DNA of 61,568 nucleotides, counting the filler, from Jimgerdemannia flammicorona (taxonomy: Eukaryota): the NCBI GenBank assembly GCA_003990765.1. It is 2 parts of 2 records of this genome, joined end to end, with 100 filler letters (N's around TTAATTAATTAA, not from the genome) between each part and the next. Parts side by side here need not be neighbours in the genome. Positions count along the whole stretch, not along the records: positions 1 to 30,745 come from RBNJ01000426.1; 1 more part is not named here. One strand, given 5' to 3'. Below, in pieces: positions 1 through 49,750 of the stretch. The notes beneath the pieces are model-generated. The model had not been told where the DNA came from. It made no database searches and was given only the letters and a program-made list of their open reading frames with translations. The first letter of the stretch is position 1. Every line of letters begins with the position of its first letter. The position numbers and the translations under genes were made by a program.

Positions 1-1
1 G

Positions 2-3000
2 GACTCAGAACCACCAAACCGAAGGAATGACACCCAGTACAAGAAGACTGAAGCCCATCCTGTTGAAGATTTTGAGGAAGCAAGCAACAGTGAAGACTAC
101 AGTGACCTAGACTTGTACCCTACCAAGATTACCACCTGAAAGACAGTCTATCCAATAGAGAAAAGAAAGAGACCTGTGGGAAGACCATCCAGGAACATCA
201 GCAGGAGAATTATTCAAGAAGAAGATGAAGAATATGAGGAGGAACAAGTTGAAACACCTCCCCAAACCCTTTCACCTTTCGTGCCCGAGATAAACGAGTT
301 GCCACCAGAAGATGAAGAAATGGAACAAGAAGAATGGGAACCTGCTGCTCCAAAGCCTAAGAAAAAGTATACCCCAAAGACCATGCCTAGAGACATTTAC
401 AATGAAGCCTGGCAGAAGATCCAAGAAGCCAAGATGGAAGTTCCTCTTTTGCAGTTCTTGCAATTGATACCAGCCGGAGTCCGAAACAAATTGCTGAGAA
501 CCACCAGGTCTAGCACTGGCCAAGTTCCAATCCCACAGCAAGAACCAGCTCCCATCCCAGTTCAAGCAGCTGAAAGACATGTCAGCACCTACTTACATGG
601 AGATATTGGAGGACAAAAAGTGAAAATCCTCATAGATACAGGAGCAGCTGTCTGTGTCATTGCCAAACGATTCCTGGACACCCTCCAATGGCCCATTGAT
701 GGACTATCCAACCTCAGCATCATAGTAGCAGATGGAGCCCGAACTCAACCCCTTGGAGAAGTACAAAATATCACCATCTCCCTTGGACACATTCAGTTCT
801 CCATCCCCAAAGCTGTTGTCACCGAAGCTGTCACCTATGACATAATTCTTGGTACCAACTGGATGAAGGAAATGAATGCAGTTGTCAATATTGGCCAACA
901 AGTACTCAAGTTTGACTACTGAGGCAAGAAGTATAGAGTTAAGGTGACCAGCTATGAGCAATCAAAGAAGAAAAAGAAGGTCACTATTCAGGAAGAGTAT
1001 GTCAGCAGTGAAGAATCTACTACAGAAGAGGAAGAAGAATCTGAAGATGGGAATGATCCCAGGCTCAATCCCTGAATCAACCTGGTGGATGACAGACCAG
1101 AAGACAATGTGTGGGCCAAAAACACTATCCCTATCACCATTGGAGCCATTGCAGGGGAAGGCAAAGGATGCCCTACATGCCTCAAGAGACACAAGTGTCC
1201 CAAGCACTCCTCCAAGATCATGGGAAAAAGGAAATCGCCTGGTGCAGCCTGCCCAGAATGCAGAAGAAAGAAGAAGAAATGCAGACATGTTCCAGAAACA
1301 CCTGCGACCAAAGCTACAGAAGTACAAGCAATTTGGGGTCAAGAATCATCTGAGGAAGAAGAAACTTCTGACCAAGAAGTTCCTGAACAAGAAGCACCTA
1401 ATGAAGAAGAAGTCCCTGAACTCATCCCCTGGGATGACCCTTGCTGGACACCACCTGAAGACAATGACCCCTGGAATATAGAGGAAGGACTCAGTACCAT
1501 CACCATTATCCCCAAGAAAGAAACCCACCAAGAGAAAGCTTTCTGGCTAGGAAGATGTCCACATCAAATGGTCTTCCACTCTCCCCAAGACTACTGCTAT
1601 CAGTGTCATCTGTTGGACCAACAAGAAAGATAGAGACCCCAGAGACCAGAACTCCCAACTACTCTTGCACAGTCCACCACCTTTCAAGAGGTCACCATAA
1701 GGTTACAAAGTCGATTTAGGGGACAAGGCTTCTTCACCCAAACAGAAATATACCCCTTGTCTACCCTTTCCCCAACCTATGATCAGGATGGGTACCGATT
1801 CCCAAGACAACAAGAGATAAATAGCCAGGAACATCATTTCCAAGCAATGGGATATTGCAACCATGGGAGACATCCTGATTGCTGAGACTGCAGACACCAG
1901 AAGATTCACCTCAGCCATGATGTTGCAGTACACACCTTGAAGAAAGGAGATAACCAAAGCCAGATCCGAAAAAGTCAGATTCGAAAAAGCCAGACCAAGA
2001 AGTCTGGAAAAAGAATCCTCAAGATCTACGATTTGGGAGAGGATATCCTAGCCCTCATCAGGCATGCAACCCACCAAGGATGGGCAGAAGATGCCACCAA
2101 CTTCATGGAAGCCCTTGACCCTACAGGAAAGAGGGGAATCAATTACCTCTGAGATCCCTCTACTGGAGCCAGATGGCCACACCTCAACCTTAGAGCTTGG
2201 AGGCTTTCTGCTAGTGAAGCTTCAGCCTTAGGAAAGCCTGAACTCAGCAAGGACATTGCCCAGTATACCCTGCTGCATCTCAAGGCCAAACTCCCGACCA
2301 AAGCCCACCCAGAGGATGTAGGATATGATCTTCACAGCCTAGAGGACGAATCCATCAAGCCTGGAAAAACCTTCATGGTCAGAACCGGATTGGCCATGCA
2401 GCCACCTCAAGGAGCTTATATTCAACTGACCTCAAGGTCTGGACTTGCCAGACAAGGAATAACTGTAGAAGGAGAAACCATTGACCCCGGATATACAGGC
2501 AAAATCAAGGTTATCCTACACAACAGCAGTGCAGAATGGCACTGAATCATTAGAGGACAGAAGATTGCCCAAGCAGTCTTCATGAAGGTCAAGACCCCAC
2601 AGTTACAAGAAGTCTCTGAACTAACTGAAGGAATAAGACAAGCCAAGGGATTTGGAAGTTCAGACAGGAAAGAGGTACACCTCCTTCAAGTCAACTGCCT
2701 CAAGAGGAATGTTCCCCAGCAAGTATACTGGCAACCAGTCAGACTATACAAGAATCTCATCCTGGAGCCTGGAGAACAAACCACCTTCGAAATATTTGCA
2801 CCACCCGACCCCAGAAACCTTTTCTTTGAACCCAAGGAAGATATCCCACACCTAGACATAGAGGGACACACATTCTCTGACAAGATGAACCCAGTACACT
2901 CCCGAGAAACCAACCAAAGTTGGGAGACCATCATCCTGCCAAAAGGAACCATCATAGGATATCTGGTGCCTTTTCTCAACCGAACTCATAGGGAAGTTTA

Positions 3001-3076
3001 TGAACTAAACCTACCAGGAAATGGCAAAAGGTCCCAGAAGAAAGGAAAGGCCCCTTTGCGACCCAGGAGACAGTGA
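2..3076 (+). pseudogene. E1 gag C-terminus / aspartic protease / uncharacterised domains / dUTPase polyprotein
   Basis: ORFs 176, 1085, 1937 and 2582 share one frame broken only by point stops. Protease motifs ILIDTGAAVCVI and DIILGTNW. Confidence 0.9.
2261..2662 (+). pseudogene. E1 dUTPase domain
   Basis: Manual translation: VGYDL, TSRSGLA, GETIDPGYTGKI, KIAQ, RQAKGFGSS match the five trimeric dUTPase motifs; one internal TGA. Confidence 0.92.
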
Positions 3077-4488
3077 AGCCTTCCACCAACATTGGAGAAG
3101 AATTGACACCTCAACAACAGCAACAACTAGTAGAACTTCTCAATAAATATCAAGATATCTTCACCACCAACTATGGCAACCTGCCATACAACCCATCATA
3201 TCACCACAGCATAAATACAGGAAGTGCAACACCCATCTGGCAGAAACTCTATAGAATACCCCATCACTTGAAAACATTCGAAAAGGAGCACATCCAAGAA
3301 CTCTTAGACAATGGAGTCATCCGACCCTCTACCAGCCCCTGGGCCAGCCCTATACTTATTGTGCCAAAGAAAGGAGGATAGAGACTCTGTGTGGATTATA
3401 GAAAACTCAACTTAGTCACTGAAAAGGATGCTTATCCTTTGCCCAGAATTGATGACCTTTTGGACCAGTTACAAGATGCCAGATATTTCAGCAGTATGGA
3501 CCTCTTCACGGAATTCCATGAGATCCCCATGGACCCCAAGGACATTCAAAAGACAGCCTTCCTTGCTCTAGGAAAATTGTTTGAATACCTCCAAATGCCC
3601 TTTGGACTTTGCAATGCACCACCCACCTTCCAGAGGATGATGAATTCAGTCTATGCCCCCTTGATCCACCACTGTCTGATTGTATACATAGATGATTCCA
3701 ACATCTATTCAGCAAATTTCAAAGAACACCTGCACTACCTAGAGGAATTATTCAAGCTCACCTGCAAGAATCACTTGAGACTGAATGCAAAGAAATGCTA
3801 CTTTGGAAAACAGAAACTCAAATTCCTGGGATTCATGGTCTTAAAAGAAGGAACTCATGCAGACCCAAAGATAACTGAGAAGATCAACAATTGGCCAGTA
3901 CCCAAGACTCCAAAGGAAACACTATCATTCTTGATGCTAGTATCCTACTACAGAAGGTTTATCAAAGATTTTGCCCAAATTGCTGCCCCAATCTGAATCC
4001 TTCTCAAGAAAGGAATGACATTCAAATGGACAGAATCACAGGAAAAAGCCTTCAGAGAACTCAAGAACCACATGACTACAGCACCAATCCTTGTGCGCCC
4101 CAATCTACAGAAGCCATTCATCTTGTATATAGATGCTTCTAAAGATGGCCTAGGAGCAGTTCTAGCCCAAGAAGGATCTGACCAACAGTACCACATGATA
4201 GCTTATGCAAGCAGAGCTACCAATCAGCAGCAGATGAACTATGGTAGCACCAAACTGGAATGCCTTGCAGTCATATGGGCAGTCACCCTGTTTAAGCATT
4301 ACCTCATCAGAAAAAGGTTCACCCTGATTACAGACCATGCAGTCCTCAAATGGCTATTCAACCGCAAGGAACCTGCTAGAATTCTAGCCTGCTGGATCCT
4401 TATCCTTCAGGATTACAAAATCACCATCATTCACAAAGCAGGGAAAGCCCACAACAATGTTGATGTACTTTTCCGCCAGCCCCAATGA
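3016..4488 (+). pseudogene. E1 reverse transcriptase + RNase H
   Basis: SPWASP, DYRKLN, YPLPRID, MPFGLCNAP, VYIDD; RNase H YIDAS, KLECLAV, TDH. In the -1 frame relative to the upstream ORF. Confidence 0.95.
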
Positions 4489-5564
4489 ATCAGAGGAAGG
4501 GTGTCCCAAGGAACCACACCCTAAAGGAAGCTCCTCAGACCATCAAAGCACAAGAAGATCTTATCTGAAAAGAACATCAGAAAGCCCACCAAGGACAGAC
4601 AAGCATAGAAGAGAGGATTTGAAAAGAATATCAACATTGGCCCCACCTCAGAACTCAAGTTCGGGACATCATCCAGAAATGTGACATCTGCCAGAAGTAC
4701 CAAGAAAAGAAGAACTATCAAGCCCCTCTGCAACCAATTCCCCCACCCACTCACATCTTTCAAAGATGGGGAGTAGATGTAATTGGACCTCTACCAGTTA
4801 CACCAAGAAGAAATAAATACATTCTTGTATTCGTAGAACATCTGACCAAGTGGCCTGAGGCTTTCCCAATAGAAATCGCTGATGCCTTAACTATTGTAGG
4901 CCTCCTCCATGGACTCACACTCAGATGTGGACCTCCAGAAGAACTCATCTCTGACCGAGGCACAGAATTCATCAACAACATAATCACAAGTTATGCCTGA
5001 ATTCACAAGATCCACCTCAAAAGGACCACATCATACCACCCCCAGACCAATGGCATTACAGAAAGAATGAACCAGACCATCAAGAAGGGACTTGCCCAAG
5101 TCAACCCTACTAATTGGGACCTCTGCTTACCTGAGATCCTGTCAGAAATTCAGAATACCCCTGCCACATCTACCAAACAAAAGCCATTCGAAATGATGTT
5201 TGCCAAGAAAACCAGAGCTGCTGACCATGAGAATCTTGGAGACCTCCTCAAGAAGGCAGAACAGTTACGAAATCAAGCCCAAGGACAGATTATCAAAGCC
5301 CAGGAAAGACACAAGAAGTACTATAACCAAAAACAGAAGGATCAGGAGATCAAGATTGGAGATCAAGTCCTAGTTTAGAGAAGCATGATTGAGACAAACT
5401 TTGCTGCCAAACTGGAACCAAAATGGGAAGGACCTTATTTTGTACACAACATCAGAGGAACCAGTATCTATTTAAGAAGCATGGATGGATGAACCCTGAG
5501 AACACCAGTACACATCAATCGCCTCAAGATATACCTCTTCTCACACCATGAATCAGAGAGTTGA
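4485..5564 (+). pseudogene. E1 integrase (separate ORF)
   Basis: HHCC (H..H..CDIC), WGVDVIGPLP, ISDRGTEF, YHPQTNGITERMN, KWEGPY; starts at an ATG overlapping the RNase H TGA. Confidence 0.92.
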
Positions 5565-6060
5565 CAACTGCCTTCAAACTCTTGTTCTCAGTTCCCTCCA
5601 AGCCCTACTAGTTCCCCTGCCTCAGTTCCGGGAACCCAATGGAACCTATCTTCAGAGAATCCAAGTTCATCAAGAGAACCTCACCCTGGCCGAGAGACTA
5701 CTCCAGGTCCACCAGCTGCAGGCATATTATGCAATTAGAGAACAATTGCAGAATTTTCCTCTCCCAGACCTAGCCTATATCCAAAACACCACTGGCCTGA
5801 ACAGAAGGAACACTACTGCTGCAGACAGACTATACACCATATATAAACGAAATCCTTCTGCCTTAATCCAGGCCCAGTTTTCCCTGAATGACCTCCAAAG
5901 GATGACTCTACCCACCTACCTCAGCATTATTCACCAAGTAGAGACCCTATTTCCTGAGGAAGAAGAAGAGCCCCTGGAATGGAGTGACCGCAGCTCAGAT
6001 GATGATGATGGAACAGGTATAGATGCAGAAGCTGCTTATGCCTATTGGGATAATGACTGA
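5548..6060 (+). CDS. E1 accessory ORF of unknown function (170 aa, acidic C-terminal tail)
   Basis: Intact ATG-to-TGA ORF between integrase and PPT; shares a Y-x2-G/R-x2-L ... A-x-R-x-Y-x2-F/Y pattern with ORFs in E2, E3 and E4. Confidence 0.75.
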   Translation: MNQRVDNCLQTLVLSSLQALLVPLPQFREPNGTYLQRIQVHQENLTLAERLLQVHQLQAYYAIREQLQNFPLPDLAYIQNTTGLNRRNTTAADRLYTIYKRNPSALIQAQFSLNDLQRMTLPTYLSIIHQVETLFPEEEEEPLEWSDRSSDDDDGTGIDAEAAYAYWDND

Positions 6061-6094
6061 AGAATAGTCTGGGACAGACTACAGTGGAGGCTGA

Positions 6095-7604
6095 TGTAAC
6101 AAGACCAAAATGTACCACCTGAATTATAACTTAGCCAGATGATGCAAACAATTAGCATACTTACTCAGCATGATGTAACTTCCAGTATATCATAGTTACT
6201 CATGCCCACCACACTTATAATTAGCCAAGACACCAGATCAGGATTGTTTACCTATGTCCTGAGGACACACTCATGTCCTGCGGACACACTCATGTCCTGT
6301 GGACACACTTATGTTCTACTGACATACTCATGTCCTGCGGACACACTCATGTCCTGCGGACACACTCATGTCCTGCGGACACACTCATATCCTGTAGACA
6401 CACCTGTACCCAGAGGACACACCCAAACATTACCAAAGATAGCAAATCTATAGTTAGCCACATAGTAACCAGATAGCAACCAACTTGTATAAATTACCCC
6501 AGAGGTACAAGTGAATAAAACCTCAGTCTGAATTGAAGTGCAAACCAAAGAAGCCTCTAAAGATTGAGCAATTGGTCCCCTTATTCCCACTCTGGTCCAC
6601 TTTCTGATACAAAGAAGAGTTTGTTATGTTTTTGGTTCACTTGCCAGATAAGCCTGAAGATTTGCCACCTAAGTTCAAGGAGAACTTTGCTGCCTTTTGA
6701 AGAACCCGCTGCTTAAAGGAATAAGCCACACTATTGGTATGCTTGCCAGATAAGCCTGAAGAACCCTATTCTCTGCCTTCCCAAGAAAGCCGCCTTGCTC
6801 AAGCCAGTTTCTGATGCAACTTCGCAGTGATCCGTTCATGCAAACGAAGCCAATCTTTGATGTAACTTTGCCAAGAGACCCTTTCCCAAAGAATGCTACC
6901 AGTTGTTCATATTCCCAGTAGAAGCCCACCAATTCAGGAAGAATCCGCGCCATCCCGTTTTCCAGTTAAGCCGCCATCCTCAAGAAACCACCGATTTAGA
7001 AAGAATCTGCATTGTCTGAATTACCCGAGTTATTGAATTATCTGCCTCTCGTGACATCTGAGTTATTCATCATTCCCAGTGAGCCTGAGTTATCGAGTTA
7101 TCCGCCACCCAAGATAATTCCCAGTTGAAGCCACTGAGTTATCTGCATTCCCCGAGAACCCCACCATTTCAGGAAGAATCTATGCCATACGATTCCCAGT
7201 GAGCCAAATTGAGTTATCTGCTGAATTATCAGAACATCTGCATAAAGAACCCGCTGCGCTACATGAAGATCATCATGCTACACAAGATCGTCATGCAGAA
7301 ATCATCTGCCACCCAAGAAGGAGAACCACTAAATTGCCAGACTGTCACACACAAGGAGATTGTCATGCTACACAGAAATTGTGCTATTCCCAGTTGACTC
7401 AAGAAGGAAAAGACATACAAATTGCTGCTACACCCAGAGAACTATCCCAATAAGGAAATCACATGCACAGTATCCAGATCTTGACTATTATACCGCTAAA
7501 CACCAAGAATATTTTGTTGCTTTTAACAAAGTAACTGGGGGCTCAAGCCAAACTACATCAACCCCCAACCTTGTAATTTGCCTCCATTGAGCCAGCATGT
7601 TACA
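6095..7604 (+). repeat. E1 3' LTR (~1.5 kb)
   Basis: 7-bp inverted termini TGTAACA/TGTTACA, preceded by a purine tract; TATAAA at 6488 and AATAAA at 6514. The partner LTR is not in the window. Confidence 0.8.
6254..6421. repeat. 19-bp tandem repeat (GGACACACTCATGTCCTGC) x ~9 in E1 U3
   Basis: Head-to-tail units visible directly, no spacers. Confidence 0.92.
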
Positions 7605-8346
7605 CTATATAATAGTCTAAATATTATTAAAGGATTTCTCTATAGTTAGGAGCTTAGTAAAATACTATTATCTTTCTATAGCTTATTAGGTAGTATTAAT
7701 AATCTTAAATTATATTTGAGAGTTTTTATAACTAAAAGATAGTTATATATATATATATATATTTTATACAAAATAAGGCTCTTCTTACTTAGGTTCTAAT
7801 TTTTATAACTATAAAGTTTCTACTATATTTTAATATATTAGAATCTTCTATCTTAATAATCTCCAGAGATTTTTAAATTTTTCTATATTATTTAATTATA
7901 GTATCTATATCTTAATTATATAATTCATAGTCTTTTTTCTTATTAATATAGTTTTTATATCTATATATGTATCTATTATAATATAGTAGATACTTAATTT
8001 TAGAAGTATGGCAGATTTCTTTATCTTAAATATATAATCTTCTTTAACTTTTCAAAGTTTTTAGAGATATAAGGTAAGTGAGTTCAAAGTATATCTGTCT
8101 ATAGACTAACTAGTTCTCTTGTCTCTTTACTTTGAACTATTTTGATCTAAAGTTTATTTATTCTAAATATTGAGAATATTTATACAAGTTTGCTAATTAT
8201 ATAATGGCTAAGTATATGACTTTCTTTTATCTTACAACTATAAGATTATATAACTACTAACTATATTACTATACTATATTGAAAATTAGATTTAGATATT
8301 ATAATTAAATATCTATCTCTTGATTCTTATTTCTTATTTAGATTAT
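7605..8346 (-). mobile_element. Highly eroded gypsy remnant (E3-like integrase end/accessory ORF)
   Basis: 7620-7710 matches 23430-23520 and the reverse complement of E3 33836-33920; very AT/TpA rich. Confidence 0.6.
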
Positions 8347-9954
8347 TATTACATAGTGGTCACTGAGTTCTTCAAATATACCAGATTCTCTTCAAGGTAT
8401 ATCTCTTAGACTAACTCAAGTTTGTTATAAGCAAGTTCTTATTAGAGTGCCTTCCCAAGGTCCTATAGTCCTCAAACTTCTTATCTTTAAACTGTTTTGT
8501 TATCTCTTAGATTGCTTGCAAGGAAGTATATATATTGCACTGAGAGGAACTGACTTTATTTCAGAGGAAATATGTAAGAGGAGTATTTATACAAAATATA
8601 ATTTAATGGTTGCTAAGATATAAAGCTAAATATAAATTCCAATAACTAAAACTACTAAGTTCCAGAGTCAGTACTGATGGTTGTACAGGTTCAGGATGCT
8701 GGAATAATTTAGTTTTACATCAGAATACTGATACTGGAATAATTTCATATCACCTCAGAATACCAATACTGGCATTATCCAGTATTATATAAGAATACCA
8801 GTGCTGGCATTATCCAGTATTACATGAGAATACCAGTGCTGGCATTATCCAGTGTTATATGAGAATACTGGTACTGGCATTATCCAGTGTAATAAAGAAC
8901 TTAGAGCAGAAAGTTCAAGACCATGGAGGCTTCATTATCATCATCATCATCACTGAAGGAGATGAGATCTACGAATTTGTTATATAGGTCGCATGTTTTG
9001 TGTACTTCGATGTCACATGGGATGATGTCATCACTGATGACATCATTACATTTGACCATGGGAAGGAGGTCTGGGGCTCTCTAGTCTATGAGGTTCTCTT
9101 CTACAAAATAAGGGACAAATGTGGGGTCTTGGGAGATCTAACCCAGATACTTGGGCCTTAAAATACTGAGATCAACCCTTGCAGGAATTGGTCTGGGTTG
9201 TCCTGGAGGATAGGGTGCCAGAAGTCTTCTACTTCATCACTATTGAGAGTAATAGTGGACTGGGCTTCTGTAGCCACCCTGGCTTCTAGTGTATTGATAT
9301 GGTGGAATGACAGGTTTCTGAAATCTGAGACTCTAATATACTCTAAGTTGGGGATTGACCATGGTGCATGCCTGAAGATCTGATAGATCTTCTTAGCTGT
9401 CCTTGTTTTGTATATATCCATGAGAGTGGCATCTTATAGCTCTTGAGTGCTGGTCTGTGGGAACTCCCAGCAGAGGAGGTTTTCTATTTCATACTCCTGC
9501 CACATTTAAAGGCATTCAGTAGTAATGGTGATCCTTGTTTCCATTTCATGATGATAGAGGATAAAGTGATAGGGATCTGCAGTACTCAGGTTAACACTAG
9601 AAGTCCTTCTTGAGCAGGTCCTAATGGCTCTTCTGATGTCTTGAAACATCCTTTCTTTGACTGAGATATCTTGGTGGTTCCTTGACCTTGAGGTTTGGTG
9701 GGCAGCAGGCATTTCATTTGTGGTAAGTCTTTGAGCTATTTTGGGATTGGTGGTTCTTATTGGTTGCTGCTACTGTGGTTCCTTGATCCTTCTTTTATAT
9801 TCTTCAGGATACTTGTACTGTGGTCACAATGACTCACAGTTGGTCATCATTGCTCATCTCATATACTATATAATCTTCTTGTGTTCTGATCTAGTGGCTT
9901 GCAAGGAAAGGCTGTCTCCTGTGCTGATGTCATCATTCTAGGGTCACTGTTACA
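8347..9954 (-). repeat. E2 3' LTR (~1.6 kb)
   Basis: Matches 15605-15814 + 21717-23030; on the minus strand it begins TGTAACAG right after the PPT. Contains a 35-bp tandem repeat (~8690-8890). Confidence 0.95.
8901..9712 (-). pseudogene. Accessory ORF embedded in E2 3' LTR (~270 aa)
   Basis: Pieces 9506-9712 and 9158-9421 plus an acidic tail (DDDDDNE) ending at TAA 8901-8903; aligns by eye with the E4 LTR ORF. Confidence 0.8.
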
Positions 9955-9964
9955 TCTTCCTCCT
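9955..9964 (-). promoter_or_regulatory. E2 polypurine tract
   Basis: AGGAGGAAGA immediately 5' of the LTR start on the minus strand; identical to the E3 PPT (34301-34310). Confidence 0.88.
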
Positions 9965-10302
9965 GAATAAGGATCTTCCGGAGCATCCATATTTATTGGT
10001 CCAGTCCTGAAAAATTTGCTGATCCCATAACCTCTGGCAAGGGGTTGAAAAGTGGTGTTTATGGGCTGGCATCTTCTCTTTGTATTTTGGTGTGATGGTG
10101 AAGGGTCACTCCCTTCATATAGAGCAAGGGTCTGATTCTGATCTTGACCAATCAGTTGATGGTTAAAACTCCTCTGACTTTGAAAGTCTCACAGATGAGT
10201 AGTTGCCAGTGCTGTATCCCTTAGAGAATAGTCCAGACAGATAGCCTGCTGGTCATAGGACATGCTGTTATGATTCGTAGACTAGAACCTTATGGGTGGT
10301 CA

Positions 10303-11477
10303 TCACATTTTGCTTCTCTTGTATAGGTTCGTGGTACTTCTTGAGTCTGTTCCTATATACTATGGTAGGCAGTATGGTCCCTGAGATTTTTCTAAGCCAG
10401 AAGATAGTTCTCTTGATATCTTGCACATAGAAGGGTCCTTCCCATTTGGGCTCCAGTTTTCACAACCATGAGGCTTCTACCATATTTCAATACAGTAGAA
10501 CCTTTTCTCTGATGCGGATGGGTTCTAGGGTCTTGTGATTCTTTTCCGCATTCTTTCTTATCAGTGCTTGTGACTTGGTGATGTAATCTTCAGCCTTCTT
10601 CCTGATTTGGTGTAGTCTCTGGATTTCTGCATCAACCCATCTCCAAGTTATATCTAGATTCATAGCTAAGGTTCCATCAGAATCTTCTTCTCTGAAGAGC
10701 AGCTCTCTTGGGGTAAAGTGTGTGCTTTGTGACCATATGTCTCATAGGATAGAGAGGGCAGTTGGGAGATAGTTATCCCAATTCTCATATGTCTCTGAGA
10801 TCTTCACTAGGATGTTCTTGAGGGTGGTACACAGTGGTCTTGATGTGCTGGATCTTGTATTTCTGATATATTATCTCATAGAATTCATTGACAAATTCTG
10901 TTCTACAGTCTGTTGTGATTTGCTTTGATGTCTTGTAGTGGCAGATGATTTCTCAGTAGAGGAAGTTGGCTATAGAGAGAGCATTGGCTTTTTGTAATGC
11001 TCCTGCCTCTATCCATTTGGTGAAGAGGTCTACAATAACTATAATATAGCAGTTTCCTGATAGTGTTACTGATAGTGGTCCAATGATATCTATTGCAATG
11101 TGGTGGAAGGGGATAGGCTCAATTCTTGATGAACCAAGTACCTGGTCTTACTGATCTTGTTTCTGTTTTTGGTACTTGTCACACCCTTTGACAAATTGGC
11201 ACAGGTCTTCTTCCATCTTGGGCCACCATATGGTTCTTCTTGCCTTATCATATATATTGGTTCCTCCTAAGTGTCCTTGCTTGTGTACTTCCTTCATTAC
11301 TTGATACTTCTTGTGTTTGGATATTACTAGCTTTCCTTGTTTTCTGAATATAGTGTTGTCTAGTTCAAACTGTTTCCAAGTCCAGCTGATGATGTTGATT
11401 GTCCAAGGTTTGAGGTGGTTGGGTATCTTCCACTGCCCAAGGTAGCTGATTAATCCATAGTATAGCTCCTTATTCAT
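10303..11477 (-). pseudogene. E2 integrase (separate ORF)
   Basis: MNKELYY start, HKQGHLG..WWP..CDK, IAIDIIGPL, TTDCRTEF, KWEGPF; internal deletions. Confidence 0.9.
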
Positions 11478-15601: not shown

Positions 15602-15910
15602 AGTTGTCACATAGTGGTTGCTGAGTTCTTCAAATATACCAGATTCTCTTCAAGGTATATCTCTTAGACTAACTCAAGTTTATTATAAGCAAGTTCTTAT
15701 TGGAGTGCCTTCCCAAGGTCTTATAGTCCTCAAACTTCTTATCTTTAAACTGTCTTGTTATCTCTTAGATTGCTTGCAAGGAAGTGTATATATTGTACTG
15801 AGAGGAACTGACTTCGGTTTGTAGTCATCACCTCTTTCCAGTACCATTCAGGTTACACAACCTTTGGAAGGCACTTTCGACAACGTTTTCAGCAAAAAGA
15901 GACTAACAAC

Positions 15911-17935: not shown

Positions 17936-17968
17936 AGGCAGATTGACAACATCACATATATCATCAAT

Positions 17969-20900: not shown

Positions 20901-21624
20901 CGATATTGGAGATGGAATGGAATGCCAAAGGGGACCAGGCCAGGATCTGTGGCCTAGCAGTTGGCAAGGAGTTGGAATTGGCGAAGAGTGGAACTGGCAT
21001 AGTGTTTGGACCTGGAGTACTGCGGTGAGAGCATGACTGCCACCAAAGTACTGGGTGGTCTGGTGACACATGCTGCAGAGGAATGTTATGCTCAACTTTC
21101 GCTCAGGGCACCTGGTTGTAGGGGGTTGCTTCGACTGTGAGGAGTGCCATAATGTAGGGCAGGAGGGGGGTTATGTACAGATGCCAGAACATTGGCTAGG
21201 AGAGTGTGAGGTGTTGGGGGATTTTTGGTAGACAATTGGGGATCACTTAGGGGTACAGGGTAGGAGTAATGGAGTACAGGGGCGATGGGAGGACCTGAGG
21301 GTTAGATTGGTAGGGGGGATAGGGAAGGAGTGGCTCACTTTAGGTTAGGCCTTGGCTATTTGGGTGGGGTTGGTCAGTTATTGGCTATTTATCTTTGAGG
21401 ATGGGAGGAGGCAGAGCTTGGGGGACTGGCTGCTGCAATGGCATAGGCTTATGGAAGACACCTTAACAGGCTGGTGGCTGGGTTGAGAGATGCGGGGTGG
21501 TTGGAGGCACTGCTTGGTGGCGAAAATCTGTGGGCAAAGTGGGGGGAGAGTGGGGGTCGTTGGTGAAAGGGTGATTTTCATTTGTGAGGAAGTAGGGAGG
21601 GGCCCCCTGGTGGGGATTGGATAG
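17969..21624 (+). pseudogene. LINE-A ORF2: APE endonuclease - RT - C-terminal Cys motif
   Basis: IFSLNVNGL, LGGDFN, RIDWIL, LDH; PGEDGLP, NWRPIML, LDQEKAYDRV, GVAQGDPLSP, FADN (catalytic DD mutated), YLGI; CFDC..H..C; multiple stops. Confidence 0.95.
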
Positions 21625-21986
21625 TGGGTCGGAATGATGTATAATTATTCATAGACTGGTAATAAAGGCAGAGTCCAAGTGACTATAAAAAAAAAAAAAA
21701 AGAGAGGAACTGACTTTATTTCAGAGGAAATAAGAGAGGTATTTATACAAAATATAATTCAATGGTTGCTAAGATATAAAGCTAAATATAAATTCCAATA
21801 ACTAAAACTACTAAGTTCCAGGGTTGGCACTGATGGTTGTACAGGTTCAGGATGCTGGTATAATTCAGTGTCACATCAGAATACCAGTACTAGAACAATT
21901 TTGCATCACCTCAGAATACCAGTGCTGGAATAATTTCACATCACCTCAGAATACCAGTGCTGGCATTATCCAGTGTAACAAAAAAC

Positions 21987-22788
21987 TTAAAGCAGAAAGT
22001 TCAGGACTATGGAGGCTTCATCATTATCATCATCATTACTGAAGGAGATGAGATCCATCAATTCATCATATAGGTCACATGTTTCATATACTTCAATGTC
22101 ACATAGAATGATGTCATCACTGATGATATCATCACATTTGGCAGCAGAGAGGAGGTCTGGGGCTCTCCAGTCTATGTGGTTCTCTTCTACAAAATAAGGG
22201 ACAAATGTGGGGTCTTGGAGAGATCTAACCCAGATGCTTGGGCCTGATCAACTCTTGCAGGAATTGGTCTGGGTTGTCCTGGAGGATAGGGTGCCAGAAG
22301 TCTTCTACTTCATCACTATTGAGAGTAATAGTGGACTAGGCTTCTGTAGCCACTCTGGCTTCTAGTGCATTGATATGGCAGGATGACAGGTCTCTGAAAT
22401 CTGAGACTCTAATATACTCCAAGTTGGGGATTGACCATGGTACATCCCTGAAGATCTGATGGATCTTCTTAACTGTCCTTGTTTCGTGTATATCCATGGA
22501 AGTGGCATCTTATAGCTCTTGAGTGCTGGCCTGTAGAAACTCCTGGCAGAGGAGGTTTCCTATTTCATACTCCTGCCACATTTGGAGGCATTCGGTAGCA
22601 ATGGTGATCCTTGTTTCTATTTCATAGCGGTAAAGAATAAAGTGATAGAAATCTGCAGTACCCAGGTTGACACTAGGAGTTCTTCTTGAGCAGGTCCTCA
22701 TGGCTCTTCTGATGTCTTAGAACATCCTTTCTTCAACTGAGATACCTTGGTGGTTCCTTGACCTTGAGGTTTGGTGGGCAGCAGGCAT
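21987..22788 (-). pseudogene. Accessory ORF copy in E2 5' LTR
   Basis: Duplicate of 8901-9712; ORF 22510-22701 reads LQMWQEYEIGNLL through a position that is a stop in the other LTR. Confidence 0.78.
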
Positions 22789-23034
22789 TTCATTTGTGGT
22801 AAGTCTTTGAGCTATTTTGGGATTGGTGGTTCTTGTTGATTACTGCTATTGCGGTTCCTTGATCCTTCTTTTATATTCTTCAGGATGCTTGTACTGTGGT
22901 CACAATGACTCACAGTTGGTCATCATTGCTCATCTTGTATGCTGTATGATCTTTTTGTATTCTGATCTAGTGACTTGCAAGGAAAGGCCATCTCCTGTGC
23001 TGATGTCATCATTCTGGGATCACTGTTACATTAT

Positions 23035-30745: not shown

Positions 30746-30845
30746 NNNNNNNNNNNNNNNNNNNNNNNNNNNNNNNNNNNNNNNNNNNNTTAATTAATTA
30801 ANNNNNNNNNNNNNNNNNNNNNNNNNNNNNNNNNNNNNNNNNNNN
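30746..30845. other. Assembly gap with artificial TTAATTAATTAA linker
   Basis: N44-TTAATTAATTAA-N44, exactly 100 nt; the linker gives stops in all six frames. Confidence 0.95.
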
Positions 30846-31647: not shown

Positions 31648-34600
31648 CTCACAGAAGCAGTAAGTGAAAAGTCAGCCTTTATAACTCCAGATAGAACATA
31701 TGTCTATCTGCAAATACCATTTGGAATATACAATACATCAGCCAGTTTCCAGCAAATGATGAACAAAATCTTCCACTATGATATGAGAAAATGGATGATG
31801 GTTTATGTTGATGATATAATCATCTACAGCTATACACTAGAAGAACTCTGCAGCACATCTAGCAGATAATAGAAAGACTGAGAAAGCATAGCCTATACAT
31901 CAAGCCTAAGAAGTGCAAGTTTGCAGAAATTGAGATCTCCTATCTTGATTATATTATCAACTAAGATAGAATACACACTGACCCCCTCAAGATACAAGCA
32001 GTAGCAGTATACCCAAGACCCACTATGGTTACTGAAGCTCAGGCCTTCATGGGACTCACTTCATATTACTGAAGATTTATTAGAGAATTTTTTAATATTA
32101 CAGGTCCAATCTATGAACTCAACAAGAAGGATACCAAGCTCCAATGAACTGGCAGGCAGCAACAAGTATTTGATGAGCTCTAGGTCAGACTGACCTAAGT
32201 ACCCATCCTTAGAAGAGCAGACTGGACCCAAGAATTCATCCTTCAGATGATGCAAGTGCACAAGAACTAGAAGTAGTCCTAGTTCAAAAGAAAGACAAAG
32301 TAGAGTATATCATTGTATATCTCAGCTGTAGAACCTGAGAAGCTGAAAAAGAATATGAATTATACAAGTTGAAGTACCTCACAGTTATCTGGACTATAGA
32401 AAAGTTCTACTACTATCTGGCCAGAAAATACTTTACTATTCAAACAAACCACTCAGCTCTTACCTGGCTACTGACCACTGGACAACTCAAGGGAATCTAT
32501 GTCAGATAGATCATGAAGTTGCAAGCCTATGATGTAACCATCATACAGTGCTCAGGAAGAACCAATGCCAATACAGATGCCCTCTCATGGACACTCTGAA
32601 GGACCCCCAACCAACAAACCAATAATGAATAAAGAGCTCTACTACAGAATTATCATATATCTGGGATAGTGAAAGATGCCCCAACATCTGGAAGAATGGA
32701 CACAAATGATTATCAACAGAATATAGAAACAATTCGAAACTGATGGAGAAATACTGAAGAAAGGAAAACTACTAGTCATACTAGAACACAAGAAGGAGTA
32801 AGCAATAAAATCAGTATATGAACTCAGCTATCTAGGAGGAACCAATATATATAATAAAGCAAAAAGAACAATATAGTGGTCAGGAATGGATGAAGATATC
32901 AGACAATTTGTCAAGACCTGTGACAAATACCAAAAATAGAAACAAGACTAATGAAATTAAGCCCCAGGATCAGTACACATAGAACCAGTGCTATTTGCCT
33001 ATGTTGCAATAGATGTAATTGGCTCTCTACCCTTGACTCTGACTGGCAACCAATACATCATTGTTATTGTAGACCTCTTCATAAAATGGATAGAGGCAGG
33101 ACCCCTCAAAGAAGCCAATGTACAGTCAATTACTGATTTCTTTCATGAAGAAATCATCTGCTGATTCAAGACCCCAATACAAGTAACCACAGACAGAGGG
33201 ACAGAATTCATGAACCAGTTCTTCGAGGTTCTCTACAAGAAGTATAAGATCCAGCATATTTGGACCACAGCCTATCACCCTCAAGGAAATGGATAAGTAG
33301 AAAGGACTAACAAGACCCTCAAAAATGTTATCACAAAGATCTGCAATAACTACAAAAACTGAGATCACTATCTGCCAATAGCATTATCTGCTCTCTGGGA
33401 TATCTGATTATAAAGCACCCACTTTATCTCTTGAGAAATGCAATTTGGAGAAGAAAGTTCTCAAGGAACTCTATTGTCCAATAGAGATGCTGTATAGAAA
33501 CACATGGATATGGAGATATGGAAACTACACCAAATCAAGAAGAAGGCTGAGGATTACATAAACAAGATACAGACACTACAGCAGAATAATACAGAAAATA
33601 TTCACAAGCCCCTGGAGATTATCAAGATAGGAGACAAAGTCCTAGTATATTGGAACATGGTAGAAGCTTTATGGTCATGAAAACTGGAGCCTAAGTGGGA
33701 AGGACCTTAACTTGTGCAAGATATAAAAGGGATCACCTTTTGGTTATGAAAACTCTCAGGCACAATCATTCCTACTACTATTCACCAAAACTGCCTCAAG
33801 AAGTATCATGACCAGTCAAAAAAGTAATGCTACTGCCCTCAAGATTACTAGTACTGCCCAGTAAGCCATAGAAAGACAGTAGTGTTCCACTGAGCCACCA
33901 ATGATAGAGAAATCCTTTGACAGTATCCAGAGTATAGTGCAAATATACCTATTACAAATCTCACATTTCAAGGCCTATCAGAACTAAACTAAGTTCCTGG
34001 AATACTTCAAGTTGGGACAGCTACTAAATTCAAAACTGAAGATGGAAAAAGAAGACTAGATCAAGAAATGTTAGCTCTCCTATACTCAAATTATAATTGC
34101 AAAAAGAGTGTACAAATTATTCAAGGATAATGAGTCAGCCTTAACCTATTTCCAAGAAGTAACTCCAGGAGACTTTGGATATATCAAGAGATAATATTAA
34201 AAGAACATAATGACACAAATTGCACAGTATAAGGAAATACAAATTATAGAAGCCTGGAAATTTGAGTGAATAGGATACTCCAGAGATGAATCACCTATTC
34301 AGGAGGAAGATATGATGGCTGATCCAAATTAGTAATATGAAATAGAGAAATTAGACATTTGATTATAATATTTGAATCTAATTTCCAAAATAGCTTAACC
34401 TTATAAATAGCAGTCATATTCTGCAAAGTGCAGAAACTTTACCATTTGCAAAGATTTAAGAGATGTTAGAATATTTGTAATTAGTACAATCCTAGCAAAT
34501 GTTAAAAGATTCAATACTTGTAAAATGACTCATAACTTAGCCACCTTATAAGCTAGTAAAACATATATAAATAATCTAGCATCTTAGAGTGAATAAACCT

Positions 34601-34778
34601 CAGATCAAAATAGTTCAATGCAAAAGAGAAAACAAAGGAACTAGTAAGCCTGTGGGCAGATATACTTCGAACTCACCCACCCCTGCAACTCTGAGGACTC
34701 TGTAAGAGTCAGAACAAGTCAAGTTTCAAAATACAGAAATCTGATATACTTCAAAGGTTAAGCATCCACTATATTATA
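31648..34778 (+). mobile_element. Ty3/gypsy element E3, 3' half (RT-RH, IN, accessory ORF, PPT, 3' LTR), decayed
   Basis: VYVDD, RNase H, integrase VTTDRGTEF/AYHPQGNG/KWEGP similar to E2. PPT AGGAGGAAGA at 34301-34310; LTR from 34311 with TATAAA 34566 and AATAAA 34592. Right end approximate. Confidence 0.88.
33808..34269 (+). pseudogene. E3 accessory ORF (154 codons, several TAA/TAG)
   Basis: Manual translation FLEYFKLGQLL...IAKRVYKLFKDNESAL; ATG overlaps the integrase end in the +1 frame as in E1. Confidence 0.7.
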
Positions 34779-37185: not shown

Positions 37186-39550
37186 TGTGATGTACACAAT
37201 TGACAATAGAGTACCGGTGACTGCTAAGATCAGACAACATAATGGCATGACAATCAAATAGACAGCCTGACCCATTAGGTGATCATCCCAAAAGAAGACA
37301 AGATGATCCAAGCCAAAATGAAGACCACATTATTTAAGGAACCATACTCTGCCTCAAGGATCAGCACCAAAGAACCAAGTACCCACCACACAATGCCTCC
37401 TATTCGCCGAACCAATCAGACCTCCTGCCGCTCTACCCCTTTGCCTGGCCCAAAGACCCTGATCTTTGAAGCTATCAAGAAGACCATCTGGCGCCCAGAT
37501 ACTTCCAAACACTTGAACTTCTATACTGAGGACGTTGGACACTTCATCAACTACCAGTATATAATGACCCAACAGCTCAAAGACACTACCGAACGAATGA
37601 CCCTCTGGCATGACTATGAAATCGGACACCACCTTCACAATGAGACTCAAGAAGGTGACCAGGAAGACCTCATTGCCGAAATGATAACCACCAGCCAGCT
37701 AATCAAGAGAGCCCTCTGTGTCCATCAAATCTTCTGCCATATTCCCTGGGCTATAGCACACTTACAAGGAGTGACAGCTGGCAGCCTCTCCCACCTTTCA
37801 ACTGAAGATGCTGACTGGATAGAATCTGAAGTAGCCAATGCTATTGGCAGCAACTGCATTGCCATAGGAAGCCAACAAACTGAACCTACTCAGCCAGGTT
37901 TCCACACCACCCCACTCTAAGACAACCATCAAGGTCACCTAATGAGTCTTATGGAGATATTTGAAGGACCGCCCATCACTATAGAGGCACCCATTGGAGC
38001 TACCCCAACCACCCACCACCCTGTCAGCCATAATTCACAGCTCATCATTTGGGAACCAAATTAAGAGGAGGCCCAAGAACTCCAAGACCCTGCCCCTGAA
38101 GAAACCCCCTCTGACACTGAAACTGATGAGCCTTCAGAAGAAGAAGAGGAGCAACAGAGAGTCTACCAGTCCTCTGTCCACATTCAAGCTGTTCAAGGGT
38201 TGGAGAATGTTGTTGAAGATGACTGGCCACTTTGCTACCCCCTCACCTCTTGGCCAGCACTTCCCCCCTTTGAGGAGAGATATGATGAAGAAGAAATCAC
38301 AACCCAGCAAGATTTGCCCACCACAGATGAAGGGTACTATTTCCTCTAGAGTACCATCCATCAGCTATGAGAACCCAGCTTTTGTCAGCAAGTCCGTTTC
38401 CAGCATTGCTACCCAGTACCACCATTTTCAGCATTTTGTCAGCAGGTCCAAATCCAGCATTGCCACCCTCCACAACCACTTCTGGCAACAATCATCATAT
38501 CATGTCAGCTCATCTGAATCCAGCATTGCTACCCAGTACCACCATTTTCAGCATTTTGTCAGCTCATCCGAATCCAGCGTTGCTATCCCCTATAACCCAA
38601 TCTGTAGTAAACAATGGCCTGCATCTCGCATTGTGCAAGCCAATAGCATAGCGAAGTTCACTACAATGTAGTATACCTTAGCCTTAGTCACGCCCCCTCC
38701 TCCATAGCTAGCAAACTTGTATAAATAACCCATATTCTTAGAGTGAATAAACCTCAGTCAGTTTGTGTTTAAAAGTAAAAGGAATTACAGAGAAACCACT
38801 GCCTCCAAGAGACCGGATAAATTCTGAGAATAAGATAACTAGAGCAACGATCGCTCGAGGTTTGAGTAAAAGAATTTTCTCTTGCCATGGAAAGAAAACA
38901 TTACCCGACCGCCGCCATTCGACTGCTATTTGAGACCCAAGACCCAGCCAAGGATTCAAGACCAGACTGCCATTCGGACTGCTATTCGGACTGCCATTCG
39001 AGACCCGAGACTCAGCCAAGGATTCAAGACCAGACCACCATTCAGACCACCATTCGGACCACACATTCAGACTGCCATTCGAGATTCAAGACCCAGAAAC
39101 CCAAGGATACCCAGACAAAGGATACTAGACTGCCAAAGACCAACCTGCTGCCAAAGACCTGAATGACCACCAGGAACCTAACAAGTTAAGATGGACAAGC
39201 AAGCCATCAACCTCTGTTTTTCCGAGCTACTGTGTCACGAACTGTTCAAAGTCAAGCCTGTCATCGCCGCCAAGTTATTCGCTGCCCTTTTCTACTAGAT
39301 ATTGAGCCATTGAACAATCAAACGACCTCATCCACTAAACAATTGAGCTGCCATCATTGAACAACCAAACATCCCCACCATCGATGTTCTGAGCCCTCTG
39401 ATGAACAATTGAATTCCTGCTATCAATTATTGCACATTTCGAATGACCTGTCACGTGACCAGCGACCTGTGAACGTCACCAATGCCTTCAGTTATACATC
39501 GCGTGCTTCACCAGTGGCACACATTAAGCCGTGCAGTCGAAGTTCATTAT
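37186..39550 (+). repeat. E4 5' LTR (last 17 bp missing)
   Basis: Near-identical to 47372-49733; TATAAA 38720, AATAAA 38746. Confidence 0.95.
37393..38349 (+). pseudogene. Accessory ORF in E4 5' LTR (318 aa consensus)
   Basis: ATG 37393 to TAG 38349; two TAA stops are CAA in the 3' LTR copy. Confidence 0.85.
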
Positions 39551-47046: not shown

Positions 47047-47371
47047 ACAATCCTGTTCACTCTGTCTGTGTCATCTCCACTGGAGATATAATGGACGTTT
47101 CACTCAGAACTCAAGAAAGCCAACAACGTTGAAACCAGACTTAAGCCCATCCATGTGACAGACATTGTTACTAATAAATTGCCTCGGATTACAAGTAATA
47201 CTATTTCCGATTGGTTCAAACCCCTAGCTGTGACTATGGGAGCCCTCGCCCTAGACAAGGATGGCCAGTCCTCACAAATGTACCAGCATTCCGCTTGTCC
47301 CTGGAGTTAAGACCACTCAACTCTGTATAACCCTCACCACCGAGGACGGCTCTAATTTTGCAAGGGGCAGA

Positions 47372-49750
47372 TGTGATGTACACAATTGACAATAGAGTAC
47401 CGGTGACTGCTAAGATCAGACGACATAATGGCATGACAATCAAATAGACAGCCTGACCCATTAGGTGATCATCCCAAAAGAAGACAAGATGATCCGAGCC
47501 AAAATGAAGACCACGTTATTTAAGGAACCATACTCCACCTCAAGGATCAGCACCAAAGAACCAAGTACCCACCACACAATACCTCCCATTCGCCGAACCA
47601 ATCAGACCTCCCGCTGCTCTACCCCTTTGCCTGGCCCAAAGACCCTGATCTTTGAAGCTATCAAGAAGGCCATCTGGCGCCCAGATACTTCCGAACACTT
47701 GAACTTCTACACTGAGAACCTTGGACACTTTATCAACTACCAGTATATAATGACCCAACAGCTCAAAGACACTACCAAATGAATGACCCTCTGGCATGAC
47801 TATGAAATCGGACACTGCCTTCACAATGAGACTCAAGAAGGCGACCAGGAAGACCTCATTGCCGAAATGTTAACCACCAGCCGGCTAATCAAGAGAGCCC
47901 TCTGTGTCCATCAAATCTTCTGCCATATTCCCTGGGCTATAGCACACTTGCAAGGAGTGATAGCTGGTAGCCTCTCCCACCTTTCAACTAAAGATGCTGA
48001 CTGGATAGAATCTGAAGTAGCCAATGCTATTGGCAGCAACTACATCGCTATAGGAAGCCAACAAACCAAACCTACTCAGCCAGGTTTCCACACCACCCCA
48101 CTCCAAGACAACCATCAAGGTCACCTAATGAGTCTTATGGAGATATTTGAAGGACCACCCATCACTATAGAGGCACCCATTGGAGCTACCCCAACCACCC
48201 ACCACCCTGTCAGCCACAATTCACACCTCATCATTTGGGAACCGAATCAAGAGGAGGCCCAAGAACTCCAAGACCCTGCCTCTGAAGAAACCCCCTCTGA
48301 TACTGAAACTGACGAGCCTTCAGAAGAAGAAGAGGAGCAACAGAGAGTCTACCAGTCCTCTGTCCGCATTCAAGCTATTCAAGGGTTGGAGAATGTTGTT
48401 GAAGATGACTGGCCACTTTTCTACCCCCTCACCTCTTGGCCGGCACGTCCCCCCTTTGAGGAGAGATATGATGAAGAAGAAATCACAACTCAGCAAGATT
48501 TGCCTGCTACGGACGAAGGGTACTATTTCCTCTAGAGTACCACCCATCAGCCATGAGAACCTAGCTTTTGTCAGCAAGTCCATTTCCAGCATTGCTACCC
48601 AGTACCACCATTTTCAGCATTTTGTCAGCAGGTCCAAATCCAGCATTGCCACCCTCCACAACTGCTTCTGGCAACAATCATCATATCATGTCAGCTCATC
48701 CGAATCCAGCATTGCTACCCAGTACCACCATTTTCAGCATTTTGTCAGCTCATCTGAATCCAGCATTGCTATCCCCTATAACCCAATCCATAGTAAACAA
48801 TGGCCTGCACCTCACATTGTGCAAGCCAATAGTATAGCGAAGTTTGCCACAACATAGTATACCTTAGCCTTAGTTGCGCCCCCTCCCCCATAGCTAGCAA
48901 ACTTGTATAAATAACCCATATTCTTAGAGTGAATAAACCTCAGTCAGTTTGTGTTTAAAAGTAAAAGGGATTACAGAGAAACCACTGCCTCCAAGAGCAG
49001 ATAAATTCTGAGAACAAGATAACTAGAGCAACGATTGCTCGAGGTTTGAGTTAAAGAATTTTCTCTTACTATGGAAAGAAAACATTACCTGACCACCACC
49101 ATTCGACCGCCATTCGAGACCCGAGACCCAGCCAAGGATTCAAGACCAGACCAACATTTGGACCACCATTCAGACCGCCATTCAAGACCCAAGACCCAGC
49201 CAAGGATTCAAGACCAGACCGCCATTCGGACTGCCATTCGGACCACGCATTCAGACTGCCATTCGAGATTCAAGACCCAGAAACCCAAGGATATCCAGCC
49301 AAAGGATACTAGACTGCCAAAGACTGACCCACTGCCAAAGACCCGAACGACCGCCAGGAACCTAACAAGTTAAGATGGATGAGCAAGCCATCAACCTCCA
49401 TTTTTCTGAGCTACTGCACCATGAACTGTTCAAAGTCAAGCCCATCATCACCACCAAGTTATTCGCCGCCCTTTTCCACTGGATATTGAGCCATTGAACA
49501 ATCAAACGACCTCATCCACTAAACAATTGAGCCACCATCATTGAACAACCGAACATCCCCACCATCGACATCCTGAGCCCTCTGATGAACAATCGAATTC
49601 CCACTATCAATTATCGCACGTTTCGAATGACATGTCATGTGACCATCGCCCGCGAACGTCACCAACGCCTTCAGTTATACATCGCGCGCTTCACCAGTGG
49701 CACACATTAAGCCGTGCAGTCGAAGTTCATTATACATAACTGACACCACA
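47372..49750 (+). repeat. E4 3' LTR (2379 bp)
   Basis: TGTGATG...CACCACA, duplicate of the 5' LTR. Confidence 0.96.
47579..48535 (+). pseudogene. Accessory ORF in E4 3' LTR
   Basis: Same ORF; ATG>ATA and one CGA>TGA, otherwise open (47783-48535). Confidence 0.85.

Follow-up and report, generated by a model that had tools for sequence, protein, structure and literature searches.

Protein-coding genes located inside long terminal repeats (LTRs) are known from a few retroviruses, with sag of mouse mammary tumour virus (MMTV) and nef of lentiviruses as examples. PMC2664473 assigns both genes to the same part of the LTR, describes such long open reading frames (ORFs) as rare among LTRs and mentions another one in the LTR of bovine foamy virus. 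For LTR retrotransposons, a search of the open-access full-text literature returned no ORF inside an LTR, and PMC6673714 applies the phrase to ORFs between the LTRs alone. Here we describe an accessory gene in retrotransposons of Jimgerdemannia flammicorona, contained in a stretch of 61,568 nucleotides (filler included) joined from two parts of two records of the assembly GCA_003990765.1, hereafter referred to as the window. The window consists of eukaryotic DNA that is dense in retrotransposons, four of which, termed E1, E2, E3 and E4, are relevant for this work. Our interest centres on an ORF at 5548-6060 in E1, for which we on balance favour the reading that it is the one intact copy in the window of a lineage-specific and fast-evolving accessory gene, whose single family would occupy two sites on opposite sides of the polypurine tract (PPT) and the LTR end, outside the LTR in E1 and E3 and inside its U3 region in E2 and E4.

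Either site has counterparts in described systems. Insect errantiviruses and the plant Athila/Tat elements carry an env-like ORF3 between pol and the 3' LTR. The gene of E1 and E3 is found in the same place, past integrase and ahead of the PPT, with both 5548-6060 in E1 and 33808-34269 in E3 lying between integrase and the 3' LTR, but at 170 residues the gene of E1 is far shorter, shows no match to an envelope family and has a start that overlaps integrase. The additional ORFs captured by LTR elements of bdelloid rotifers, reported in PMC5408684, share this location. Conversely, the gene of E2 and E4 resembles MMTV sag and lentiviral nef as a sense ORF in 5' U3, upstream of the LTR promoter, a position inside or overlapping U3 that is not shared by the genes of E1 and E3, which precede the LTR. 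This likeness does not extend to sequence, as the ORFs of E1, E2 and E4 match neither family and have no hit in Pfam, nor to the host, as the E elements are Ty3/gypsy-type retrotransposons without env. Moreover, nef merely extends into U3, in contrast to the gene of E2 and E4, which is wholly contained within it, and the E4 type differs from both retroviral genes by a TATA sequence of its own upstream. E1, E2 and E4 also share the place of their dUTPase, between protease and reverse transcriptase (RT), with dUTPase-carrying Ty3/gypsy retrotransposons, and to our knowledge the earlier-described elements of this kind have neither a 3' nor a U3 accessory gene. In its evolution, the gene resembles ORF0 of the rice elements Retrosat2, RIRE3 and RIRE8, which is likewise found in long-LTR gypsy elements and diverges far faster than pol. 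According to PMC3485330, Retrosat2 and Sorsat2 are more than 60% similar in pol and about 10% in ORF0, and in our case pol is 55% identical, yet the accessory gene is undetectable by BLAST. ORF0 is located upstream of gag-pol, unlike the 3'-end or LTR gene described here, and the sequences are unrelated.

Results

The accessory gene outside the LTR in E1 and E3

An earlier note on this DNA had described, in both E1 and E3, an ORF between integrase and PPT that starts at an ATG overlapping the integrase end in the +1 frame. In E1, the frame is open over 170 codons and ends 34 nucleotides ahead of the 3' LTR, which begins at 6095, placing the gene outside of the repeat. Its ATG (5548) consists of the A and T of an integrase histidine codon and the following G, which sets the ORF at +1 relative to pol with an overlap of 17 nucleotides (5548-5564). 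The same histidine codon harbors the ATG of E3 at 33808, again at +1 to pol. Place and start of the E3 gene are thus as described, but its frame is not open, as it contains seven in-frame stops and therefore has to be classified as a pseudogene rather than an ORF.

Because pol of E1 contains five in-frame stops over about 850 codons (at 3379, 3994, 4998, 5376 and 5490, besides at least one frameshift), the openness of 170 codons is by itself unremarkable and within chance. We count the ORF as a gene because nine database proteins, which are 44-72% identical, keep its frame, one of them with an in-frame deletion of five residues. Four of these relatives were identified by word search and five by scanning the full set of 1.84 billion representatives with HMMER; a scan of metagenomes with the E1 family produced 554 pattern matches, none of which was confirmed. 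The arrangement of gene, gap and LTR is not unique to the E1 copy of the window, since a single metagenome contig of 415 nucleotides spans 5914-6293. The encoded protein contains a leucine-rich N-terminal stretch, a helical core carrying the motifs YYAIxEQL and AADRLYTIYKRNPSAL, followed by an acidic tail with aromatic residues at its end. In the gap between gene and LTR, a purine-rich stretch may, by its likeness to the PPT of E4, serve as priming tract. Directly after the LTR end at 7604 follows an AT-rich flank, and in metagenome contigs of other copies (four contigs in run X1, one in X6) a sequence resembling a primer-binding site (PBS), TTTGGGGGCTCAACTGGG, stands behind this position. At 5556-5564, pol of E1 ends in GAG AGT TGA, where a forward slip by one base would lead to GTT in the accessory frame, a sequence which we take to resemble the +1 frameshift site of Ty3.

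In E3, the PPT found downstream of the pseudogene is the same as in E4, with an exact match of 16 nucleotides detected by blastn. The LTR of E3, of which the window contains one, would by its likeness to E4 start at about 34311. Further downstream, at 35155-35434, there is a tandem array of about 14 copies of a 14-nucleotide unit.

The accessory gene inside U3 in E2 and E4

In E2 and E4, the ORFs reside inside the LTR and the region between integrase and PPT consists of a spacer, both as stated in the earlier note. In these spacers, of 325 and 313 nucleotides, respectively, no E1-type relative was detectable. The gene encodes 270-355 residues and is located wholly within U3 of verified LTR pairs with a length of 1.6-2.4 kb, upstream of the LTR TATA and poly(A) signal. 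It starts 207-241 nucleotides past the LTR start, at 207 in E2 (37393 and 47579) and at 241 in E4 (9712 and 22788). The LTRs of E2, each of about 2.37 kb and about 95% alike, begin with TGTGATGTAC directly after the PPT GCAAGGGGCAGA, and those of E4, on the minus strand, have their start TGTAACAGTGA at 9954 and 23030, immediately past AGGAGGAAGA. At the 3' LTR of E4, metagenome contigs with a loose end at 8354 continue with a PBS-like sequence. To judge from their sequences, the E2-type and E4-type genes are clearly homologous, with E-values of 9e-8 in BLASTP and down to 1e-19 in tblastn.

Stops interrupt each of the four LTR copies of the gene that the window contains; in addition, the 3' copy of E2 has lost its ATG and that of E4 is frameshifted. 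Intact relatives are found in ten database proteins and in the metagenome contig L001, where an E4-type gene of 323 residues precedes the same TATA/AATAAA block. In comparisons of L001 with the two E4 copies, the proportions of nonsynonymous (pN) and synonymous (pS) differences amount to 0.22-0.25 and 0.67-0.70, and the ratio of the corresponding rates (dN/dS) to 0.15-0.16, compared to 0.58 between the two E4 LTR copies. The value of about 0.15 against L001 shows the E4-type gene to be under purifying selection and thus selected as coding sequence. L001 was one of two loci obtained in a metagenome scan with the E2/E4 family, the other, L002, being dropped as a mere match of 15 residues. Viral contigs contained no relative of either the E1 or the E2/E4 family.

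The sequence ATATAAAAG is located 60-90 nucleotides upstream of the ATG of the U3 gene in both E4 LTRs (9800 and 22876, minus strand) and at positions 3-11 of L001, and might possibly act as a second promoter inside the E4-type LTR. Between gene and TATA, U3 of E4 contains 35-nucleotide tandem repeats at 8697-8894 and 21853-21980, and TTAGCC-like words were noticed by eye upstream of the main TATA in U3 of all elements. The LTR type of E6, a partial E2-like element, recurs beside E3 right after runs of N at 30746-30789 and 30802-30845; a search for the U3 gene in E6-type LTRs gave no significant match.

Relationship between the outside and inside forms

According to the earlier note, the ORFs of all four elements are one retained gene with equal motif spacing in its outside and LTR-borne forms. 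The spacing indeed agrees to within one residue in a single register. The strongest single result in favor of homology is provided by the decayed copy of E3, which appears to bridge both families. With X at its stops, E3 scores 11.8 bits against the profile hidden Markov model (HMM) of the E2/E4 family and 13.3 bits against that of the E1 family, values that were reached by none of 1000 shuffles each, and the stretches matched by both profiles overlap (E3 residues 67-116) in one register. When 1230 six-frame segments of the window are scanned, both profiles have their top non-self match in E3, with independent E-values (iE) of 0.022 for E2/E4 and 0.016 for E1, followed by unrelated matches with iE above 1 and of 0.047, respectively. 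The match of the E1 profile at iE 0.047, which falls in the +1 frame of the C-terminal part of integrase in E4 (10421-10305, minus strand), was judged to be due to chance.

Further evidence was obtained from ten profile-profile comparisons of the E1 family with E2/E4 alignments in hhalign. Six of these follow the register of the earlier note, which aligns YYAIG on YEIG and AADRLYTLYKRN..AL on AKKIHQIFRHAPWSI with one gap, at P-values between 0.079 and 0.0011. In this register, the E1 family of ten sequences aligns to the E2/E4 alignment with a P of 0.079, which changes to 0.017 upon inclusion of E3 (with X at stops) and to 0.003 if L001 is also added to the E2/E4 side (0.021 without E3). Against the E4 type only, P is 0.003 over 74 columns without E3 and 0.0011 with E3. 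Scores in this register thus climb with added sequences, and they were reached in column shuffles in 2/300, 0/400 and 0/250 cases. The remaining four comparisons, with P-values of 0.06-0.26, adopt another register. These include a shallow E1 alignment of five sequences paired with the first E2/E4 alignment of nine rows (P 0.062) or with one of 15 rows (P 0.14), and the E1 family paired with the E2 type only (P 0.098 without and 0.26 with E3). The E1 family hence resembles the E4 type and not the E2 type.

Alternatively, the outside ORF and the U3 gene could be unrelated and separately acquired, their common motifs being a product of chance or convergence in short helices, and a number of results weigh in this direction and against a single family. 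Direct comparisons by BLASTP are not significant (E1 and E2, 4.8; E1 and E4, 0.036; P0016 and P0008, 0.84; P0016 and P0005, 25), and six single sequences scored against the HMM of the other family yield between -0.2 and 3.4 bits, values reached by 9-279 of 1000 shuffles. The E1 protein itself attains 3.4 bits against the E2/E4 HMM, matched by 15 of 1000 shuffles, and 2.2 bits (iE 6.6) in the scan of the window. The E2 type, which belongs to the pol sister of E1, taken alone displays no likeness to the E1 family. In hhalign, the different register of four comparisons has to be considered, the best P is reduced to about 0.01 once corrected for ten tries, and shuffling in blocks of ten columns, a harsh null that keeps single motifs, reached the score in 2/200 cases. 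The aligned part comprises about one third of either protein and leaves the N- and C-terminal parts unaligned, and the AlphaFold models (with pLDDT of 44.5 and 38.6) are too poor for a comparison of folds. Finally, no function is readable from the Pfam, ESM Atlas or PDB libraries, and the readings of promoters and expression presented here are built on sequence motifs alone.

Against an unrelated origin stand the matches of E3 to both profiles, which involve identical residues and rank first in both scans of the window, the rise of the scores in one register with the number of sequences and the column shuffles, none of which reached them among 400 and 250. Both forms, moreover, share an acidic tail and predicted helices that are collinear at an offset of +13 to +15, equivalent to the offset of the sequence alignment, a weak correspondence in light of the poor models. 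We thus regard a separate acquisition as unlikely. Instead, it appears likely, at a moderate level of support, that the outside form and the U3 form have homologous helical cores, spanning about 60-75 residues with two common motifs. The proposal of one gene family in four elements is in this way moderately supported by the bridging role of E3 and by the comparison of the E1 family with the E4 type, whereas the direct tests of E1, including its weak score against the E2/E4 profile, and the E2 type by itself do not speak for it.

Gene position and pol lineage

In light of the two locations of the gene, the phylogeny of pol becomes relevant. Over the 310 columns common to the four elements, pol of E1 and E2 is 55.5% and that of E3 and E4 57.4% identical, compared to 34-40% in the cross pairs. 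The grouping (E1,E2)(E3,E4) is supported by 34 informative sites, as opposed to three for either of the other groupings, and agrees with the integrase C-terminus and the PPT. Each pol clade consequently unites one outside and one inside form, which cannot be accounted for by a single event. The accessory genes depart from the pol grouping, with the E2 and E4 types far closer to each other than the genes of E1 and E2 or those of E3 and E4. In both forms, the LTR-terminal motif (TGTAACA or TGTGATGTA) is found directly after the PPT, which makes a mere displacement of the priming site a poor fit. The gene would have switched sides relative to the PPT together with the LTR end, which a new PPT alone would not achieve.

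This pattern could result from at least two moves, from the exchange of a 3' module or LTR by recombination, or from the reciprocal loss of two old paralogs, a set of options which we infer with moderate support and from which none was singled out. The entry into the LTR had previously been ascribed to recombination or to a shifted site of plus-strand priming, a view for which the pol grouping, the constant proximity of LTR-end motif and PPT and the lack of relics in spacers and LTR leaders provide no support. A search for relics of the integrase 3' end in the leader regions of the E2, E4 and L001 LTRs yielded nothing robust, the Smith-Waterman scores of 12 pairs being reached by 14-348 of 500 shuffles. 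Blastn comparisons, in which the TATA/AATAAA block is the sole conserved part of the LTRs, revealed no LTR grouping that would point to recombination. The sequence TATTTAAG, which precedes the ATG in E1 as well as in E2, was left as coincidence, as leader scores are not robust.

If the two forms were old paralogs, nothing would have moved. Their ancestor would have contained both an outside and a U3 gene, for example as a consequence of a duplication spanning the PPT, followed by loss of the U3 copy in E1 and E3 and of the outside copy in E2 and E4, leaving behind the spacers of 313-325 nucleotides. Such a history would fit the pol tree without repeated moves and conform with the likeness between the E2 and E4 types, which by far exceeds that of either type to the outside gene found in its pol sister. 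It would also agree with the same start, an ATG in a histidine codon, in E1 and E3, which belong to different pol clades, and with the spacers of E2 and E4, which are of roughly the right place and size, the one of E2 being 76% identical over 307 nucleotides to the post-integrase spacer of E6. Conversely, it requires four losses, none of the elements seen in the window carries both genes, and the spacers of E2, E6 and E4 contain no relic of an E1-type gene, the best scores of -0.9 to -2.6 bits being reached by 141-205 of 300 shuffles and blastn showing nothing past integrase and PPT. A by-eye match, RIxxxLxTLxxSS, behind the integrase stop of E2 was rejected as relic of the outside gene for its lack of statistical support. 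On this evidence, we rate the reciprocal loss of paralogs as rather improbable. Very improbable, finally, is a third scenario in which the E1-type product would be a C-terminal extension of integrase generated by +1 ribosomal frameshifting at GAG AGT TGA, for which the +1 frame, the 17-nucleotide overlap with pol and the heptamer-like GAG AGT T directly ahead of the pol stop can be cited, but which conflicts with an ATG that is kept in E1, E3 and all eight database proteins including the N-terminus despite being dispensable for integrase (E4 has CAC at that codon), with E3 being without such a heptamer and with the E2/E4 forms being plainly free-standing genes.

Returning to the favored reading of one family at two sites, the accessory gene might have crossed the boundary defined by PPT and LTR end more than once and, upon arrival inside U3, have turned into a self-contained cassette that is doubled with each insertion and survives in solo LTRs, a proposal that we advance tentatively and with considerable doubt.

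Organization of the elements in the window

In E1, E2 and E4, searches with Pfam identified gag-asp_proteas, RVT_1, RT_RNaseH, Integrase_H2C2 and rve in this order, and in E2 also a gag zinc knuckle (zf-CCHC). In E3, a tblastn search with E2 pol detected the same order from RT to integrase. The dUTPase is located at 2153-3073 in E1, at 12714-13304 on the minus strand in E4 and at 43297-43998 in E2 (Pfam E-values down to 6e-30), resulting in the general succession gag, protease, dUTPase, RT, RNase H and integrase. By the order of their pol domains, E1, E2 and E4 are Ty3/gypsy-type LTR retrotransposons (Metaviridae), a group marked by direct LTRs with terminal inverted repeats, a PPT and a PBS. 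In agreement with this, LTR pairs are present in E2 and E4, the E1 LTR ends in the inverted repeats TGTAACA and TGTTACA, and PBS-like sequence continues the LTRs in metagenome contigs. E1 and E3 have one LTR apiece within the window. The features are compiled in Table 1.

Near-copies of parts of the window are found on soil-metagenome contigs, all of the DNA type. At 4500-10500, nearly all differences between the window and these copies are transitions, with 73-108 places in each of the four transition classes compared to 2-9 per transversion class in run X1, and the stops in the LTR genes of E2 are also of the transition kind. The 5' LTR of E4 is split by an insert which looks like a different, non-LTR-like retroelement and which contains an ORF with an RVT_1 match (19433-20383, plus strand) and an ORF of 607 residues without Pfam match (16112-17932). 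A stretch of 6 kb at 24000-30000 exhibits a G over C skew of 0.44-0.49 and contains ORFs without Pfam match.

Table 1. Coordinates of the elements and of their accessory genes, LTRs and signals, counted along the window.
Feature	Position	Strand	Remarks
E1	1 to 7604	+	5' end cut off by window edge
E1 integrase C-terminus	5274..5564	+	in-frame stops 5376, 5490; pol stop TGA 5562-5564
E1 accessory gene	5548..6060	+	intact, 170 residues; 9 database relatives
E1 gap, accessory stop to LTR	6061..6094	+	34 nucleotides; imperfect purine-rich (candidate priming) stretch ending ...GGAGGCTGA
E1 3' LTR	6095..7604	+	1510 bp, TGTAACA...TGTTACA; TATA/AATAAA block near 6487-6530
E4	about 23030 down to 8347	-	LTR pair present
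E4 3' LTR	8347..9954	-	U3 gene 9712-8904, stops plus frameshift
E4 3' LTR signals		-	upstream TATA ATATAAAAG 9800; main TATA 8591; AATAAA 8561
E4 spacer	9955..10267	-	313 nucleotides; integrase stop 10270-10268; PPT AGGAGGAAGA 9964-9955
E4 5' LTR, remainder	15814-15604	-	beyond nested insert 15815-21730
Nested insert	15815-21730		5.9 kb, GC-rich, strong G skew; splits E4 5' LTR at AAATAAA site
E4 5' LTR, U3 part	21731..23030	-	second broken gene copy 22788-21990
E3	about 31600 to 35100	+	truncated, decayed, adjoins two N runs
E3 accessory pseudogene	33808..34269	+	7 internal stops; start context as in E1; matches both profiles
E3 PPT CAGGAGGAAGA	34300..34310	+	same as E4 PPT; downstream of accessory pseudogene
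E2	37186 to about 49733	+	LTR pair present
E2 5' LTR	37186..39550	+	U3 gene 37393-38349, 2 internal stops
E2 5' LTR signals			TATA-like TATTTAAG 37331; main TATA 38720; AATAAA 38745
E2 spacer, integrase stop to LTR	47047..47371	+	325 nucleotides, PPT GCAAGGGGCAGA at end
E2 3' LTR	47372..49733	+	U3 gene 47579-48535, altered start codon, single internal stop; TATA 48906
E6	60800-61558 (right end); E6-type LTR also 30846-31600	-; +	partial E2-like element
TTAGCC-like words	6130-6480, 34530-34560, 38690-38715; L001 1030-1200		by eye

Discussion

The product of the accessory gene defines a protein family without relatives in Pfam or the PDB, which adds to the repertoire of dUTPase-bearing elements. 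The ORFs of E1, E2 and E4 match no Pfam family at E-values up to 1, a sequence search of the PDB yielded nothing for the E2/E4 profile and matches at chance level alone for the E1 profile, and in the ESM Atlas we found no usable match for E1 and, for P0009, matches under 0.9 with TM under 0.5. Both forms are predicted to be helical, with a disordered acidic tail that ends in aromatic or hydrophobic residues, and the E1 product, in a poor model, is predicted to be all-helical with an acidic tail. The combination of a helical core with an acidic tail would suit a protein with a regulatory or adaptor role in the element, which may act as activator of its own LTR or counter silencing by the host.

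This protein would be expressed from the element's 3' end. In its outside form, whose ATG resides in the integrase end, it may be translated from a subgenomic or reinitiating message. For the U3 form of the E4 type, the location of the sequence motifs suggests that transcription could start from its own TATA 60-90 nucleotides upstream and end at the LTR poly(A) signal, in which case every LTR, including solo LTRs, would be a complete gene cassette.

If the outside and inside forms belong to one family, this group of elements shows both states in close relatives. It would then become testable how a gene enters the repeat, which effects on copy number and expression arise from its presence in both LTRs and in solo LTRs, and how a U3 promoter tolerates a coding insert. 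A repeated crossing of the LTR boundary, if true, would be the retrotransposon counterpart of the arrival of sag- and nef-like genes in the LTRs of retroviruses, and sister lineages would offer living intermediates of either state.

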